From Limnochordia bacterium (GTDB lineage: Bacteria > Bacillota > Limnochordia > DTU080), in the NCBI GenBank assembly GCA_050951545.1, contig JBMNJG010000005.1, forward strand, positions 96,001 through 160,000: DNA of 64,000 nt. The letters run 5' to 3'. The notes under the pieces were generated by a model, which saw only the letters and a program-made list of their open reading frames with translations, was not told the DNA's origin and did not search any database. Position numbers and translations under genes: made by a program. Below are positions 31,410 to 38,130 of the stretch, one piece after another. Position 1 is the first letter of the stretch; each line of letters opens with the position of its first letter.

Positions 31410-32639
31410 CTACTCAGCGAGCACCTGATGGTGTACCTTCTTCCCCTTGCGAAGGACTAGCCTTCCCGACCGAAAATCGGCTGGCCCGATCACCTGTTCT
31501 GCCTGGATGACAGTCACATCGTTGACGTAGACGCCACCCTGATCTACGAGGCGCCGCCCCTCACTCTTGCTTGTGACAAGACCCGTTTTAAGCAGCAGGT
31601 CGACGACCGAGATTCCAGCGGAAACTTCCTTCTCGCTCAGTCGGGTGCTTGGCATTTGGCTGGATGATATCTCGCCGCCAGCAAATGCGGCCTCAGCAGC
31701 TTCCTGGGCTCCTTGGGCCGCCTCAGTGCCATGCACGATGCGAGTCACTTCGAAAGCAAGAACTCGTTTGGCCTCGTTGACCGCTCCTCCTTTCAACGAA
31801 CCCAGACGTTCTACCTCCTCCATAGGCAAGAAGGTCAACAAAGACAAGAGTCTCCTGACGTCTTCATCGGCTGTATTTCGCCAGTACTGGTAGAAATCGT
31901 AAGGACTCGTCTTCTTTGGATCCAGCCAAACAGCTCCGCTCTCCGTCTTGCCCATCTTCTTTCCAGTGCTTGTCGTCAGCAAAGAGAGTGTCAGACCGTA
32001 AACATCGGCGCCTTCCTTGCGACGAACGAGATCGACCCCGGCCAGAATGTTGGACCATTGGTCGTCTCCCCCCATCTCCAAGCGGCAACCGTACTTGCGG
32101 AACAGCGCGAGGTAGTCGTAGGCTTGCATGAGCATGTAGTTAAACTCCAAAAACGAGAGCCCACGCTCCAATCGGGCCTTGAAGCACTCGAAGCTCAGCA
32201 TGCGATTCACAGAGAAGTGCACGCCGATCTCACGGAGCACATCCACGTATTTCAAGTCCAAGAGCCAGTCTGCGTTGTCCACCATAAGAGCCTTGCCCGG
32301 ACCGAAATCCAAAAAACGCGAGAGCTGCTGTCGGAAACGCTCCCCATTGGCTCGGATTTCCTCCCGCGAAAGCATCGGTCGCATGTCGGTCTTGCCGCTT
32401 GGATCGCCCACCATGGTAGTACCACCACCCACCAGAGCAATGGGCCTGTGACCATGCCTTTGCATGTGCATCATAGCCATGATGGTCAGAAAATGACCGA
32501 CGTGCAAGCTGTCAGCGGTGCAGTCGAAACCAACATAGAAGGTGACTGGCGAGTTTCCAAGCAACTCCCGCAGCGGCTCATCATGTGTCACCTGGGCTAC
32601 GTAACCCCGCTCAAAAAGCACATCGAAAACGTTGCTCAT
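31410..32639 (-). CDS. tyrS: Tyrosine--tRNA ligase
   Basis: [28 protein letters not shown]-terminal S4 domain (RKGKK). Confidence 0.97.
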
Positions 32640-32732
32640 AGCTATATGGCCTCCCCCGTGCATTGTTGTCTACATTAGCGCCCCTCATGTACCCGCTTGG
32701 ATGCGAGTATCCGAGCCCGCACGAAAACCCCA

Positions 32733-32980
32733 AAAAAGAAAACCCCATCGCAAGGACGAGGGGCTCGTGGTACCACCTTGACTTCACGCCGTATGGCGCC
32801 TCAGCCGGAAACATGCTTCCAGTCCGCTATAACGGGCGACCCGGCCTTGTCTACTCGAGTTCAACAGGCAGCTCCAGAAGGTAATTCGCCGTGTGCCGTG
32901 CTGCCGACCTCGCACCCGAGCGGCCGACTCTCTGAGGCTGTAACCGACACCAGCTACTTTGTTTCCATCATAGCCTTTCG
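32733..32980 (-). promoter_or_regulatory. T-box riboswitch (Tyr)
   Basis: Minus strand: AGTA, AGAGAG and GGTGCGA stem-I elements. Specifier GAAT-TAC at 32881-32883 (Tyr codon). T-box AAGGTGGTACCACG (32766-32779) followed by a terminator with a U-tract. Confidence 0.93.
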
Positions 32981-32984
32981 TTCA

Positions 32985-33012
32985 GAGTACCACATTAGCC
33001 AATGGCCTTCAA
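32985..33012 (-). promoter_or_regulatory. sigma-A promoter of the tyrS leader
   Basis: TTGAAG -35 and extended -10 TG-G-TACTCT immediately upstream of the T-box leader. Confidence 0.6.
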
Positions 33013-33050
33013 GCTCTGGAGGGAAGGTGGGTGCACACGTGAAATCGCGG

Positions 33051-33064
33051 CGAACACCCGTTCC
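33051..33064. promoter_or_regulatory. Putative LexA (SOS) box
   Basis: CGAAC-ACCC-GTTCC, a perfect GAAC-N4-GTTC core. Confidence 0.55.
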
Positions 33065-33621
33065 TAATCATGCTGCCTCCCGCCTCTCCCAGAAATCGTC
33101 CCACTGTTCACCGTGGGAGTATGCTGCAACGTTTGGCATCTGCTGTGCCCCAAGTTGGCTCCAACGCATTCCAGATTGCCTGTGGCGCCTAACAACAACC
33201 TGCTTACAGGCGCTTTCTACGCATCCGCTGCCAATGGGGTAGCCAGCGGCCTCCAGCCTCGGATAAAGGGTTCATCTCCTCCTGCGAAGGTGCCTCTTGA
33301 GTGCGTGTCAACCCACGAGTAAATCTTACCGAAGACCGTATGGCTCGCTCACCAAAGATCTAACCCAACGCTTGTCTAAGTTAGAGCAGGCATAGGCTCA
33401 CGACTACTGCTACGGACTCTCTGGGATGCATCGGTGGCCTCGGCCACCGATGCAGTTGGTGGGCCTTGGCCGATCAGTTGTTCAATCCTGTGGTGCATAG
33501 CCAGTGGGTTTAGCTCACGTTGCCGCTTCTGCACGATCGCCGGCGGCGGGTGGACGCGCACTAACATTGGCTGCACGGCTGATGTGAGCCCTGACGAAAC
33601 GGACAAGGCGACCCAGGGTGA

Positions 33622-34398
33622 TTACTCGTCTTGCTTTCTCTCAGATTGGCTGGCGGTTCCCCAGCCACGCTCATCTATTCTTTGCTGGTACTCACCGCAT
33701 CTACACTCGAGATAGTTGATGAGCCTCCGGTTGAAGTCCTGACCGCGCCGGAATGGCAGCCGCCTGTGAATCTTGCGCTCGATGATCTTGCAGGACAGCT
33801 CGTGAGCCTGAATCACGATCAGCTTGATCTTCTTCTTAGCGCAGATCTGCTGTTTGGTCTGGTCACGGCATTGCTGCTTATGGACCTGCTCAGCCGAATT
33901 CCCCTCAGTGACGCGGTAGTGTTGCGCCCCATTGAACTCCATGGCCGTATTGTGCAGGTAATAGAAGAGATCGACCTCCAGACGCTTGCCAGTTGCTGGG
34001 TTCCTCATGAAACCTGGGCGCATTCCGTCGTCGAAGTCAAGGCAATCGACAAGCGCCAAGAAGATAGCCTGCATGAGAGCCTCTCCGAGGTGCGTAGCGC
34101 GGTGGAGCTCATCCTGCACGTCTAGTATTTCTTTTACATTTCGCTTATCAACCGGGTTGTGGAGAGTGAAGCGAATCGGTGCCCGCTTGTGCGCCTGCTC
34201 CATCTCCAGCCAACCATGCTTGGCCAACTGACGAGCCGCGTGTTTGATGGTTTGGGGGCTCAGACTCATCCGGCCGGCTAACTCAGCGTATGTGAACTGC
34301 CTTTTGCGAGGTGGGTCCGTAGGTTTGGACAGCAGTAGGGCATAAACCAATTTGGCCTGTGCATGGATTTCAGTAGCCATGACTAGCTCGACAGGCAC
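33622..34398 (-). CDS. Winged-HTH + PD-(D/E)xK/Vsr-like nuclease domain protein (probable C-terminal part of a split gene)
   Basis: HTH region TYAELAGRMSLSPQTIKHAARQLAKHGWL. Nuclease-like GE...LEVDLFY...AMEFNGAQHY...RDQTKQQIC...KLIVI. Confidence 0.7.
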   Translation of the reverse strand: MPVELVMATEIHAQAKLVYALLLSKPTDPPRKRQFTYAELAGRMSLSPQTIKHAARQLAKHGWLEMEQAHKRAPIRFTLHNPVDKRNVKEILDVQDELHRATHLGEALMQAIFLALVDCLDFDDGMRPGFMRNPATGKRLEVDLFYYLHNTAMEFNGAQHYRVTEGNSAEQVHKQQCRDQTKQQICAKKKIKLIVIQAHELSCKIIERKIHRRLPFRRGQDFNRRLINYLECRCGEYQQRIDERGWGTASQSERKQDE

Positions 34399-34682
34399 GG
34401 AGACCCTGTCCGGGGATGGCTTCTGTGCCGCGGTCTGGCTAGGCCCCGCCTAGCCGGTGGAGCAAACCAGCCCTCGGTGGTTAACTTGGCTGTCGCCCTG
34501 CGAACGGTAGGCCGGGACATACCCGTGCGCCGCCCCAGGCGGCTGGGCGAGAAAAGGAAGCTTTCCTCCAGCTGATCATCCATCGTTAAGGCCATCCAAA
34601 CGATCTTCTCGCTGGCTTTTAGCTCGCGAGTCAGTAGCAGTGAGAGCGGCACGTTCACCTCATCTACATAGAGAGAGTACAA
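34383..34682 (-). CDS. Winged-HTH protein (probable N-terminal part of a split gene)
   Basis: VPLSLLLTRELKASEKIVWMAL...SPSRLGRRTGMSRPTVRRATAKLTTEGWF, paralogous to the HTH of the downstream ORF. GAGGTG RBS before TTG 34682. Confidence 0.65.
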   Translation of the reverse strand: MYSLYVDEVNVPLSLLLTRELKASEKIVWMALTMDDQLEESFLFSPSRLGRRTGMSRPTVRRATAKLTTEGWFAPPARRGLARPRHRSHPRTGSPCLSS

Positions 34683-34700
34683 GGGCCTCACCTCACACAA

Positions 34701-34735
34701 CGATCATGTGTTCGATTGTCTCGATGGGATGTTCG
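34701..34735. promoter_or_regulatory. Putative LexA box(es) upstream of the HTH-nuclease gene
   Basis: Minus strand CGAAC-ACAT-GATCG (34701-34714, one mismatch) and a weaker CGAAC-ATCC-CATCG (34722-34735). Confidence 0.45.
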
Positions 34736-34843
34736 GTACGTGAGGCCAGAATCCTTCCACAGCTTTCGCTGAAAACGCGCGCATTGCCGGCTAAGACCCG
34801 GTGGCCACCGGGAGTCGACAGCATTTCCCGCTCGGATCATCGG

Positions 34844-37038
34844 CTGAGTGGGAAAAGGCTATCGACACTGTTCGGTTATGTACCGCCCGGTAGCTCCAGA
34901 AGGGCCACCAAGGCGGGAAAGCGTGCCTCTTTTGGGGGGAAATGAGCCCTTCGGGCGGTCAAAATGAGCAAAAAGGGCTCCGCGAAGGCCGCATCGCTGC
35001 ACTTTTACCACGTACATTGGGCCCGGGGGTTAATGAGGCGGCTCTTTTGCCATCGCGGTCGGATTCTTGGCCCCGACTCACATACCAATCCGGGTGCATC
35101 TGTCCGACTACCGAGCGAGTCTCGCGAGCGTGTCCATTGATCCGTCCATTCTCTTCCAAATGCACCGACCGGGATAACACCGAAGGGTCGGTCCGCAGAG
35201 GGACCCGAGTGAGCCCGCCGTGATCGCGCACTGGGGAGCTGACCCCATCGGCTGAGTGGGAAAAAGGCTATCGCTCACCGTTCGGTTATGTACTGCCCGG
35301 CAGCCCCAGAAGCGGAACCAAGGCGGGAAAGCGCGCTCTTAGGCGGGGAAATGAGCCCTTCGGGCGGTCAAAATGAGCAAAAAGGGCTCCGCGAAGGCCG
35401 CATCGCTGCACTTTTACCACGTACATTGGCCCCGGGGGTTAATGGGGCGGCTCTTTTGCCATCGCGGTCGGATTCTTGGCCCCGACTCACGTACCAATCC
35501 GGGTACATCTGTTCGACTACCGAGCGAGTCTCGCGAGCGTGTCCATTGATCCGTCCATTCTCTTCCAAATGCACCGACCGGGGCAACACCGAAGGGTCGG
35601 TCCGCAGAGGGACCCGAGTGAGCCCGCCGTGATCGCGCACTGGGGAGCTGACCCCATCGACTGAGTGGGAAAAAGGCTACCGCCACCGTCCGGTTATGTA
35701 CCGCCCAGTAGCCCCAGAAGGGCCACCAAGGCGGGAAAGCGTGCCCTTAGGCGGGGAAATGAGCCCTTCGGGCGGTCAAAATGAGCAAAAAGGGCTTCGC
35801 GAAGGCCGCATCGCTGCACTTTTACCACGTACATTGGCCCCGGGGGCTAATGAGGCGGCTCTTTTGCCATCGCGGTCGGATTCTTGGCCCCGACTCGCAT
35901 GCCAATGCGGGTGAATCCCGTCCGACTACCGAGCGAGTCTCGCGAGCGCGTCCATTGCATCCGTCCACCTTTTTCGAAATACACCGACCGGGGCAACACC
36001 GAAGGGTCGGTCCGCAGAGGGACCCGAGTGAGCCCGCCGTGATCGCGCACTGGGGAGCTGACCCCATCGACTGAGTGGGAAAAGGCAGTCACTACCGTTC
36101 GGTTATGTGCCGCCCAGTAGCCCCAGAAGGGCCACCAAGGCGAGAAAGGTGCGCTCTTAGGCGGGGAAATGAGCCCTTCGGGCGGTCAAAATGAGCAAAA
36201 AGGGCTCCGCGAAGGCCGCATCGCTGCACTTTTACCACGTACATTGGCCCCGGGGGTTAATGAGGCGGCTCTTTTGCCATCGCCGTCGGATCTTGGCCCC
36301 TACTCACGTACCAATCCGGGTGCATCTGTCCGACTACCGAGCCAGTCTCGCGAGCGCGTCCATGCATCCGTCCATTCTCTTCCAAATGCACCGACCGGGA
36401 TAACAGTGAAGGGTCGGTTCGCAGAGGGACCCGAGCGAGCCCGCTGTGATCGCGCACTGGGGAGCTGACCCCATCGACTGAGTGGGAAAAAGGTACCGTC
36501 ACCATCCGGTTATGTACCGCCCAGTAGCCCCAGAAGGGCCACCAAGGCGGGAAAGCGCTCTCTTTTGGGGGGAAAAGAGCCCTTCGGGCGGTCAAAATCG
36601 GCAAAAAGGGCTCCGCGAAGGCCGCATCGCTGCACTTTTACCACGTACATTGGGCCCGGGGGTTAATGAGGCGGCTCTCTTGCCATCGCCGTCGGATCTT
36701 GGTCCCTACTCGCATGCCAATGCGGGTAAATCCCGTCCGACTACCGAGCCAGTCTCGCGAGCGCGTCCATGCATCCGTCCATTCTCTTCCAAATGCACCG
36801 ACCGGGTTAACACTGAAGGGTCGGTTCGCAGAGGGACCCGAGCGAGCCCGCTGTGATCGCGCACTGGGGAGCTGACCCCATCGACTGAGTGGGAAAAAGG
36901 TACCGTCACCATCCGGTTATGTACCGCCCAGTAGCCCCAGAAGGGCCACCAAGGCGAGAAAGCGTGCCCTTAGGCGGCGAAAAGCACCCTTCAGGCTGTC
37001 CAAACCAGCCAGAAGGGCTTCGCGAAGGCCGCATCGCT
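34844..37038. repeat. Tandem array of ~408-bp non-coding units (5 full + 1 partial)
   Basis: Anchor CTGAGTGGGAAAA at 34844, 35252, 35661, 36071, 36478 and 36885 (periods 408, 409, 410, 407, 407). Units are highly similar with scattered substitutions and indels. Confidence 0.97.
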
Positions 37039-37287
37039 AGGTTGTTACCACCAACCCAAGCGAACGCAGGGAGATTACCGCAGTTTTTGCGTGGCCCCAG
37101 GGAAGGTCCGTCGACTACCACCACCTATTAGTGTAGCCCCGATCCCGAAAAAAACACTGTGCCTACAGGTGTAAGAGTTTCCATGCGGAAATACCCTCAT
37201 AGTACGCGTATGTGACGATTCCAATGCACTGTCTGGCATCATCCGAGACCGGGCTACGCCACTAACGCTGTAGAAAGAAGGTAACAC

Positions 37288-38130
37288 TTGAGCATTCGCA
37301 TTGTGACCGACAGTTCCTGTGACCTCCCTGCTGAACTCGCCCAGGAGCTAGACATTGAGGTTGTGCCTCTAACCGTGATCATCGATGGCCAGGAGTACGT
37401 TGAGGGTGTGACCATGGATGCCTCGCGTTTTGCGCACGTGATGCGCAACAGCACGGAACTGCCCAAAACATCACAGCCGAGCCCGCATGCTTTTGCATCT
37501 GCCTTTGAGCGTGTGGCCACTACCGCGAATAAAGCTGCCGAGGTGCTGTGTATCACGCTTTCATCGAAGCTGTCTGGCACCTTCCAGTCGGCGTGCATGG
37601 CCCGCAAGTTCTTTCGAGGCACCGTGAATGTGATTGATTCGCGCTCGGGAACGCTCGGTCTGGGTCTCATGGCATTGGAAGCTAAACGCCTAGCCACCCT
37701 GGGACTCTCCCTTAGTGAGATCACAGAGAAGATCGAAGCCATGCGAGAGCAGATCTCCGTCTTCGTGAGCCTGGACACGCTGGAAAACGCGGTCAAGGGC
37801 GGCCGTGTGCGACGAGTCGAGGCCGCTGTGGCTCAGCTACTGCGCATGAAGATCTTTGTGCGCACCAAAGACGGTGAGGTAGTAGTCTGCGGAAAGGCAC
37901 GTGGACGCAAGAACATGCTTGCCGGTTTCCTCGAAGCGATGCAGACCAAGGCTGAAGATTACCGTGATCGTTTCGTAGGTATCACGCATGTTGATAACGT
38001 CGCCGATGCCCAAGTTCTAGCCGATGCGATTAGGCACCGCTTTAGCCCGGCCCGGATCATTATCGCTCCAATGGGCAGTACCATCGCTACCTATGCTGGA
38101 GTAGGAGCCTTGGCGCTGGCCTACTGGTAG
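37288..38130 (+). CDS. DegV family fatty acid-binding protein
   Basis: IVTDSSCDL, PKTSQPSP, LSSKLSGTFQSA, VIDS, KGGR. Confidence 0.95.
   Translation: MSIRIVTDSSCDLPAELAQELDIEVVPLTVIIDGQEYVEGVTMDASRFAHVMRNSTELPKTSQPSPHAFASAFERVATTANKAAEVLCITLSSKLSGTFQSACMARKFFRGTVNVIDSRSGTLGLGLMALEAKRLATLGLSLSEITEKIEAMREQISVFVSLDTLENAVKGGRVRRVEAAVAQLLRMKIFVRTKDGEVVVCGKARGRKNMLAGFLEAMQTKAEDYRDRFVGITHVDNVADAQVLADAIRHRFSPARIIIAPMGSTIATYAGVGALALAYW

Follow-up and report, generated by a model that had tools for sequence, protein, structure and literature searches.

Insertion sequences of the IS4/IS5 type (IS10, IS50, IS903) have inverted tips and leave 9-bp target duplications, and in Tn7 the restriction-fold nuclease TnsA works with a DDE partner, TnsB, encoded in the same element. 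Ty3 and the Dictyostelium tRNA gene-targeted retroelements (TRE) are eukaryotic, move through an RNA intermediate and use a transcription-factor tether to insert upstream of RNA polymerase III genes. Repetitive extragenic palindromes (REPs) are dispersed palindromes of 20-40 nt, single or paired, and the REP-associated tyrosine transposases (RAYTs) are HUH enzymes; CRISPR arrays consist of short repeats (about 23-55 bp) parted by unique spacers. In iteron replicons, such as those served by the initiators pi (R6K) and RepE (mini-F), tandem iterons of 17-22 bp recur at ~22-bp spacing. I-Bth0305I is reported to be a homodimeric multidomain homing nuclease with a 60-bp footprint that leaves 2-base 5′ overhangs (Taylor et al. 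2011, PMC3239194).

Here we examine a stretch of 64,000 nucleotides from a Limnochordia bacterium (assembly GCA_050951545.1, contig JBMNJG010000005.1, positions 96,001 to 160,000), hereafter the window, in which a tandem array of ~408-bp units lies beside a minus-strand gene for a protein with two winged helices and a nuclease-like domain. An earlier note on this DNA had described array and gene as a module between tyrS and degV without integrase or transposase. The two neighbours are borne out by Pfam, but the module is not stationary: positions 33029-37098 are almost certainly a mobile element that joins array and gene, present in many copies with 9-bp target duplications. It is best read as a copy of an undescribed family of transposable elements, disabled in the window by a frameshift. 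We found no description of the system in open-access full text, a scope that leaves out subscription journals and ISfinder, and to that extent the suggestion that it is undescribed holds.

The element has the general properties of a transposon, namely defined ends, target duplications, many unrelated sites and a congener without the element at the locus. Like an insertion sequence, it combines inverted tips and a 9-bp duplication with multicopy spread, gene-less derivatives and purifying selection on a single gene; unlike one, its protein has no match to DDE or other known transposases, it contains a long internal array and it sits at a fixed distance from -35 boxes. It also differs from Tn7 in holding no second gene. 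Like Ty3 and TRE, it inserts a short and constant distance upstream of where transcription starts, with tRNA genes among the targets, although this is a bacterial DNA element. The analogy to REP elements and RAYTs drawn in the earlier note extends to repeated non-coding sequence tied to a nuclease-type gene, but breaks down beyond that, since no HUH protein is present and the 408-bp units are not scattered singly: all 84 matches belong to the element's tandem arrays or fragments, about 26 in number. As with pi and RepE, the gene is accompanied by direct repeats in rows, each repeat having a single short conserved core; in contrast to those initiators, the protein adds a Vsr-like nuclease domain, lacks a Rep_3 match and is not found on plasmids, and the element differs from iteron replicons in its periods of 94, ~260 and 408 bp and in being a chromosomal multicopy transposon with target duplications. 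It resembles I-Bth0305I (PMC3239194) in its multidomain build, with DNA-binding parts N-terminal to the nuclease, in its selfish lifestyle and in its Vsr-like catalytic domain; the N-terminal module differs in consisting of tandem winged helices. Unlike EDxHD or Vsr-like homing endonucleases, the gene is free-standing rather than lodged in an intron or intein, and the element occupies many unrelated sites with 9-bp duplications instead of homing to one allele. It is thus set apart from, and is a member of none of, the known transposase classes, the plasmid iteron systems and the intron or intein homing nucleases.

Boundaries, copies and insertion sites

The copies share homology from 33029 to 37098, which delimits an element of 4.07 kb (Table 1). 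In the genome to which the window belongs (3.64 Mb in 16 contigs, designated by C-numbers below) the gene occurs in 15 copies with 97-100% amino-acid identity, 13 of them intact and two, including the window copy, frameshifted; the same genome has 13 more distant paralogues of the gene. An array stands beside the gene in every one of the 15 gene-bearing copies, with 1.7-5.9 units each, and direct repeats also accompany the gene in three sister subfamilies, so that the proposed coupling of array and gene is real. The target duplication is a perfect 9 bp in five of the seven complete copies and matches at 8/9 positions in one; the C2 copy fails, with 4/9. The tips form an imperfect inverted repeat: in the C4 copy the left tip agrees at 18 of 31 positions with the reverse complement of the right tip, a score reached by 9 of 20000 shuffles, and in the window copy, which has one T fewer, the tips match at 13/31 only.

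The copies vary in their left portion. Some have the long left arm seen in the window, others deletion forms of it, and short-arm copies have their own tip ~135 bp past the stop codon. A gene-less derivative keeps the tips, the array and an 8/9 duplication. There is also a mini-element of ~290 bp with a right-type and a left-type tip, which adjoins two copies at a distance of 15 nt from their short left end (C7:457608-458150 and C16:1995-2332); the composite of mini-element and copy on C7 has its own 9-bp duplication. In one further pair, the left-tip flank of one copy is the reverse complement of the right-tip flank of another (C7:660068, C11:1508), which suggests either that recombination between copies has inverted a segment or that the assembly was joined at the repeat.

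Two genomes of the same genus allow a comparison of the locus. In one (G002), tyrS and degV lie on one contig ~350 bp apart without the element, and in the other (G001) they are neighbours as well; the congener intergenic region, at 75-79% identity, is too diverged for base-level alignment, and the claim is limited to the absence of the element and to gene order. The organism is present in digester, bioreactor and landfill metagenomes. The right junction is spanned by contigs from two other studies (records 8 and 16), and short-read contigs break at the element. Sequencing depth over the element in runs X1 and X10 is many-fold above that of the flanks, these values being sums over all contigs and not copy numbers.

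The insertions stand at a fixed distance upstream of sigma-70-type promoters, in the order duplication, 7 nt, -35 hexamer. Among 24 flanks, seven have TTGAC at exactly +17 outward of the tip, with every other offset seen once; given a TTGAC frequency of 9.8e-4 per position, seven of 24 at one fixed offset corresponds to P = 3e-16. Two further flanks have TTGAC at +17 with one mismatch, one of them being the tyrS side of the window, where the -35 box begins 17 nt outward of the left tip. TAnnnT follows the hexamer at 17-18 nt spacing in eight of these nine +17 flanks. Counted by complete copies, five of the seven show TTGAC without mismatch at +17; the hexamer at that offset is TTGAAG in the window copy, and in the C4 copy TTGAC starts at +12. 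The promoter-side tip is the left one in six of the nine flanks with a -35-like hexamer at +17 and the right one in three; in the C4 copy it is the left one too. By this spacing, the target is a 9-bp stretch separated by 7 nt from a -35 box downstream of it, and the element can face either way. The site could be read as a DNA motif or as a promoter complex. tRNA genes or operons are found within 60-90 nt in four of 12 promoter-side flanks, and the T-box leader of tyrS begins a few nucleotides downstream of the -10 box that adjoins the element.

The few tips available from subfamilies B, C and D and from other genomes did not show the +17 pattern. Two subfamily D copies (C5:216262, C16:78535) have on their right side a right-type tip with TTGCGT or TTGCAG at promoter spacing from an outside TATAAT, which in one of these copies is then followed by a tRNA gene. 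The subfamily D right tip and the outside TATAAT may together form an outward-facing hybrid promoter.

Table 1. Features of the element and its surroundings. Coordinates are window positions, except for the tRNA-side flanks, which are given by contig.
Feature	Coordinates	Strand	Remarks
tyrS	31410-32663	-	Pfam
T-box leader upstream of tyrS	32749-32980	-	82.4 bits, under the Rfam gathering score of 93
Predicted tyrS promoter next to the element	32984-33012	-	-35 TTGAAG 33007-33012, -10 TACTCT 32984-32989, spacer 17 nt; called from consensus matches, function inferred from sequence
Left target-site duplication	33020-33028		AGGGAAGGT; 9-mer identical to the right one
Left tip	33029-33059	+	GGGTGCACACGTGAAATCGCGG...; imperfect terminal inverted repeat
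Long left arm	33029-33621		no conserved gene; two small open reading frames without Pfam match
Optional left-arm segment	~33250-33535		lost between GCCAGCGGC direct repeats in several copies (10-copy alignment)
Tandem winged-helix and Vsr-like nuclease gene	33622-34700	-	broken by a 1-base deletion at ~34443
Spacer between gene start and array	34701-34837		82-98% identity in other copies
Tandem array	34838-37051	+	5 full units of 407-410 bp, then a partial unit (unit positions 1-173)
First 28-nt core	34988-35015	+	GCCGCATCGCTGCACTTTTACCACGTAC; near-invariant, one per unit
Remaining five cores	starts 35397, 35805, 36215, 36621, 37028	+	core at 37028 degenerate
Unique right end and right tip	37052-37098	+	...CCGCAGTTTTTGCGTGGCCCC; homology to other copies stops at 37098
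Right target-site duplication	37099-37107		AGGGAAGGT; perfect 9-bp match to the left one
degV	37288-38130	+	Pfam
tRNA-side flanks	C2:124430, C3:130861, C16:2332, C12:190826		tRNA genes or operons: Ala-Ile-Ala, Val-Asp-Phe-Gly, Leu, Pro

The encoded protein and its relatives

Intact copies of the gene, one of which lies at C4:114970-116037, encode 356-360 amino acids. The minus-strand gene with two winged helices and a nuclease domain described in the earlier note is present and its domains are supported, but in the window a frameshift splits it into open reading frames at 33622-34398 (258 amino acids) and 34383-34700 (105 amino acids). The deletion is evident from alignment to an intact copy, and contigs from four sequencing runs have the extra base. 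Both winged helices match HTH_36 and MarR-type Pfam models (also GntR and others), and 11 of the 89 family members also match DUF2726, of the restriction-endonuclease clan, in their C-terminal part. Searches of NCBIfam and of Protein Data Bank (PDB) sequences added nothing beyond helix-turn-helix families, and PADLOC returned weak helix-turn-helix matches only. Among the PHROG phage families, homing endonucleases match residues ~235-310 (1.4e-11, 1.2e-9 and 5.9e-6), while the N-terminal helices match replication-initiator and DnaD-like families.

An AlphaFold2 model built from 89 homologues (predicted local distance difference test, pLDDT, 92.2; predicted template modelling score, pTM, 0.86) gave no Foldseek match at E <= 0.001, and the Foldseek matches that span both winged helices are to RepE bound to an iteron and to another Rep only. 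A structure search independent of Foldseek aligned residues 6-180 of the model with the pi initiator on iteron DNA (2nra_C, score 8.5, 165 residues, root-mean-square deviation 3.9), residues 199-337 with Vsr (1cw0_A, score 8.0, 107 residues) and residues 200-313 with the I-Bth0305I catalytic domain (3r3p_B, score 7.8, 93 of 98 residues). As modelled, the N-terminal half appears to resemble the iteron-binding initiators pi and RepE, and the C-terminal domain, in which the D..EFNG.QHY stretch lies, resembles the nucleases Vsr and I-Bth0305I. Residues D241, E252 and H258 of the protein are conserved.

The 13 intact copies differ by 1.7% at the DNA level, with a proportion of synonymous differences (pS) of 0.048 and of nonsynonymous differences (pN) of 0.0084. 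The ratio of 0.18 indicates purifying selection, as expected for a gene that the element needs. The protein has no match to DDE, HUH, serine or tyrosine recombinase families in Pfam, NCBIfam or PHROGs, and no second conserved open reading frame was found in the minimal element. Given these results, we think it probable that the protein is the element's own mobility enzyme.

Alternatively, the protein would not be the transposase at all: a conventional enzyme, for example of the DDE type, would act in trans, and the winged-helix nuclease would be cargo that could serve as a regulator, as a free-standing homing-type nuclease or in addiction or defence. The 9-bp duplications with inverted tips are a hallmark of DDE transposition, as in the IS4/IS5 type, the Vsr-like fold is known only to hydrolyse DNA, and gene-less derivatives with tips exist. 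However, every tip of this type that was found belongs to an element with this gene family or to a deletion derivative of one, the subfamilies differ in their tips and repeats in step with their proteins, and the pN/pS ratio fits selection for a function that the element needs. The lack of a transposase match and of a second gene points the same way, although the genome was not surveyed for DDE transposases. Taken together, we regard a transposase encoded elsewhere as unlikely.

A second alternative casts the protein as a replication initiator and the array as its origin, with the nuclease nicking the origin of a replicating element circle. The alignment of the tandem winged helices to pi and RepE bound to iterons and the Pfam and PHROG matches to replication-initiator and DnaD-like families agree with this, as do the direct repeats beside the gene in all four subfamilies, which in subfamily D occur on both sides, as in the oriR-repA-incA arrangement of P1. 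Yet 72,556 plasmid records yielded no homologue, phages match by the nuclease domain alone and the Pfam family Rep_3 gives no match; in addition, the repeats, with periods of 94-409 bp, do not come near the ~22-bp spacing of iterons, and clean 9-bp duplications are those of transposition-type insertion. An initiator role therefore seems very improbable, and we retain the protein as the probable mobility enzyme.

Relatives of the protein are numerous. A representative library has 1568 at E <= 0.001 and 149 at E <= 1e-30, and most of the matches listed are of 300-400 amino acids, near the 356 of the query. Gene matches were obtained in 13 of 40 related genomes, some of them multicopy (17 and 13 matches), and two congeners have none, an absence that may partly reflect repeats lost from short-read bins. 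With a 16-row alignment as query (a single-protein query found none) we located 80 named homologue loci, which come from Limnochordia, Symbiobacteriaceae, Thermaerobacter and metagenome-assembled genomes of unclassified Bacillota or Clostridia. Four of the 80 are labelled as non-Bacillota (two in a 'Mycobacterium leprae' metagenome-assembled genome, one Bacteroidota and one Actinomycetales), and these labels are presumably binning or labelling noise.

Within the genome, three subfamilies stand beside subfamily A, to which the window copy belongs. Relative to P0003, an intact A protein, the four copies of subfamily B have 54-55% amino-acid identity, with ~260-bp units at about three per array (arrays were called in two of the four); the seven copies of subfamily D have 47-50% identity and 94-bp units at 2-4.6 per array; and the two copies of subfamily C have 47-48% identity and three dispersed repeats of ~160 nt. 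The D unit has a 45-nt core, of which a single further copy lies, in the same orientation, on the other side of the D gene. Among the subfamily D copies, homology stops at the array in most, and in two it continues into a further arm.

The repeat array

The window holds a single array, which Tandem Repeats Finder places at 34838-37038 (period 409, 5.4 copies, 91% matches, score 3529). A repeat search of the window put the unit starts at 34838, 35248, 35656, 36065, 36472 and 36879, with start-to-start distances of 407-410, and the sixth, partial and more diverged copy reaches ~37051. Both methods agree with the five full units and one partial unit reported previously; the distance from gene to array, given there as about 160 bp, is 138 bp by our measurement. 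A promoter of the gene presumably lies in this spacer, in which no consensus promoter was found.

Constraint on the unit is uneven. Across 53 full units, consensus positions ~125-185 have an identity of 0.96-0.99, versus ~0.85 in the rest, and the 28-nt core sits inside this most conserved block. A weight matrix of the core finds 76 sites genome-wide, 75 of them within arrays. Since arrays start at unit position 1 and stop near position 173, n units hold n+1 cores. Subfamily B units retain the primary sequence of the A core, over 46-84 nt and with 71-78% identity, and hairpins are not kept. A tree of the 53 units is a mosaic, with no grouping by array or by position. The units diverge by 5-20% (median tip branch 0.072), compared with 1.7% (pS 0.048) for the genes that these element copies carry. 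Conversion that reshuffled old unit paralogues is one possible cause, and rapid evolution another.

As had been supposed, the array is neither a coding repeat nor a CRISPR array. A coding repeat is excluded by unit lengths that range across the genome from 385 to 434 nt and are not multiples of 3, by variability without 3-base periodicity and by stop codons in all six frames. A CRISPR array does not fit units of 407-410 bp that are all homologous and have no unique spacers. Nor is the array a reiterated element tip in subfamily A, since local alignment of the 60-nt tips with the unit scored no better than shuffles, shared 12-mers were not above shuffles and the core matrix found no site in the arms.

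The array might instead be transcribed into a non-coding RNA that acts with the nuclease as guide, scaffold or regulator, in line with the earlier idea of unit-derived RNA partners. The units have a high G+C content and contain numerous short palindromes that resemble hairpins, and in an alifold consensus 93% of cells are paired, with 52 one-sided pair types versus 19-31 in shifted controls. However, the fold energy is no better than that of shuffles (z of +0.5 and +0.2), compensatory pairs number 3 versus 1-5 in shifted controls, and between A and B units it is primary sequence and not hairpins that is retained. Furthermore, no Rfam family matches the array, no promoter or terminator pattern was found in it, and the variable stretches of the units are point variants of one sequence, unlike spacers. 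Contigs of the RNA run X16 map to the gene (33671-34479) and not to the array; since these are contigs, and DNA is possible in such libraries, they neither show that the gene is transcribed nor argue that the array is silent. The idea of an RNA partner is thus unsupported by folding, covariation or Rfam, and we consider an RNA role highly unlikely.

How the element might move

The element is a single-gene transposon with 9-bp duplications, promoter-proximal targeting and one constrained core per unit. Our best explanation as a whole is a promoter-seeking single-protein transposon with an iteron-like array, a reading in which our confidence is evenly divided. The winged helices, arranged as in iteron-binding initiators, would read specific DNA at the tips and at the array cores, and perhaps also the -35 region or a promoter complex. 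The cuts, with a 9-bp stagger in the target, would come from the Vsr-like nuclease domain, and joining would follow either through chemistry new for a Vsr-like fold or through host repair. Each unit would offer one 28-nt high-affinity core, and the cores, lined up beside the right end, would recruit or retain many copies of the protein in cis, by which the array could help to assemble the ends or could soak up the nuclease and limit its activity. For the array itself, a role as an iteron-like platform falls slightly short of an even prospect.

Several points weigh against this reading, in addition to the trans-acting transposase discussed above. Joining is the weakest step of the mechanism: to our knowledge, nucleases of the Vsr-like fold hydrolyse DNA and do not join it, so that either host repair completes the insertion or the chemistry is new. 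The overhangs left by I-Bth0305I are of 2 bases, not 9 (PMC3239194). Binding, cutting and transposition by the protein are predicted activities. Tips and array core have no significant shared sequence, and one protein would therefore need two specificities. Array size varies overall from 1.4 to 5.9 units without visible consequence. The search of the genome and its relatives that the earlier note proposed finds the unit richly in its own genome, but the 408-bp unit is present in that one genome only among the 41 searched. The flanks of homologues, which it also proposed to test for repeats, gave a mixed result: in favour of the coupling, tandem repeats of period at least 30 within 1.3 kb of homologues form 29 clusters versus 10.7 expected, a 2.7-fold enrichment in 24 of 80 loci for which the near zones are probably richer in non-coding DNA, and the other 56 loci have no tandem repeat within that distance, which means that long arrays are not a family-wide requirement. 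Long-period arrays are rare elsewhere (1 of 18 loci).

Another reading is a transposon as described whose array is a functionless satellite, amplified by slippage or unequal crossing-over next to the right end and carried along as a passenger. The variable copy number among near-identical elements and the mosaic tree, which is typical of unequal exchange, fit such an origin, as do the restriction of the unit to one genome, the scarcity of long arrays at homologues and the lack of RNA, coding, promoter or terminator signals in the array. A satellite would not, however, explain why the 28-nt core is so much more conserved than the rest of the unit, why the core is kept in subfamily B with a protein only 54% identical, why direct repeats are kept independently in all four subfamilies, or why none of the 15 gene-bearing copies has lost its array. 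We consider a functionless array rather unlikely, though less so than the other alternatives; all of these overlap in part with one another and with our main reading.

As a transposable element the system is of a known kind, and there is a real chance that its mobility mechanism is categorically new. The furthest-reaching form of the proposal is a new transposon class whose sole enzyme combines Rep-like tandem winged helices with a Vsr-type nuclease and works without DDE, HUH, serine or tyrosine chemistry, reads sigma-70-type promoters (possibly the -35 region while polymerase is bound to it) and inserts 16 nt upstream of the -35 box, with long iteron-like arrays that assemble or restrain the nuclease; this we hold to be somewhat doubtful. 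If the protein alone moves the element, it would add a new catalytic type to the few enzymes known to transpose DNA, and would connect three groups that are mostly treated separately: the initiators of plasmids together with iterons, homing endonucleases, and insertion sequences. The fixed -35 spacing is unusually precise for a bacterial element, with tRNA operons and the tyrS leader among the targets; it hints at a tether to the transcriptional apparatus, and at a naturally occurring tool that sets DNA just upstream of promoters and leaves them intact. In these arrays, satellite-like DNA has arisen within a bacterial transposon, and they may show whether rows of binding sites regulate a selfish nuclease. 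For annotation, the element accounts for about 26 long arrays, 28 'MarR-like hypothetical' genes and breaks in short-read assemblies.

A whole-genome tandem-repeat scan also returned repeats unrelated to the 408-bp array. True CRISPR arrays of two repeat types lie at C5:2109-3024, C6:153894-159109, C16:153015-157743 and C9:15169-16945, and other long-period repeats at C16:38327-38910 (142 bp), C11:82585-83748 (611), C2:145828-146613 (210), C7:558103-558807 (339 bp) and C6:82375-82996 (311 bp).

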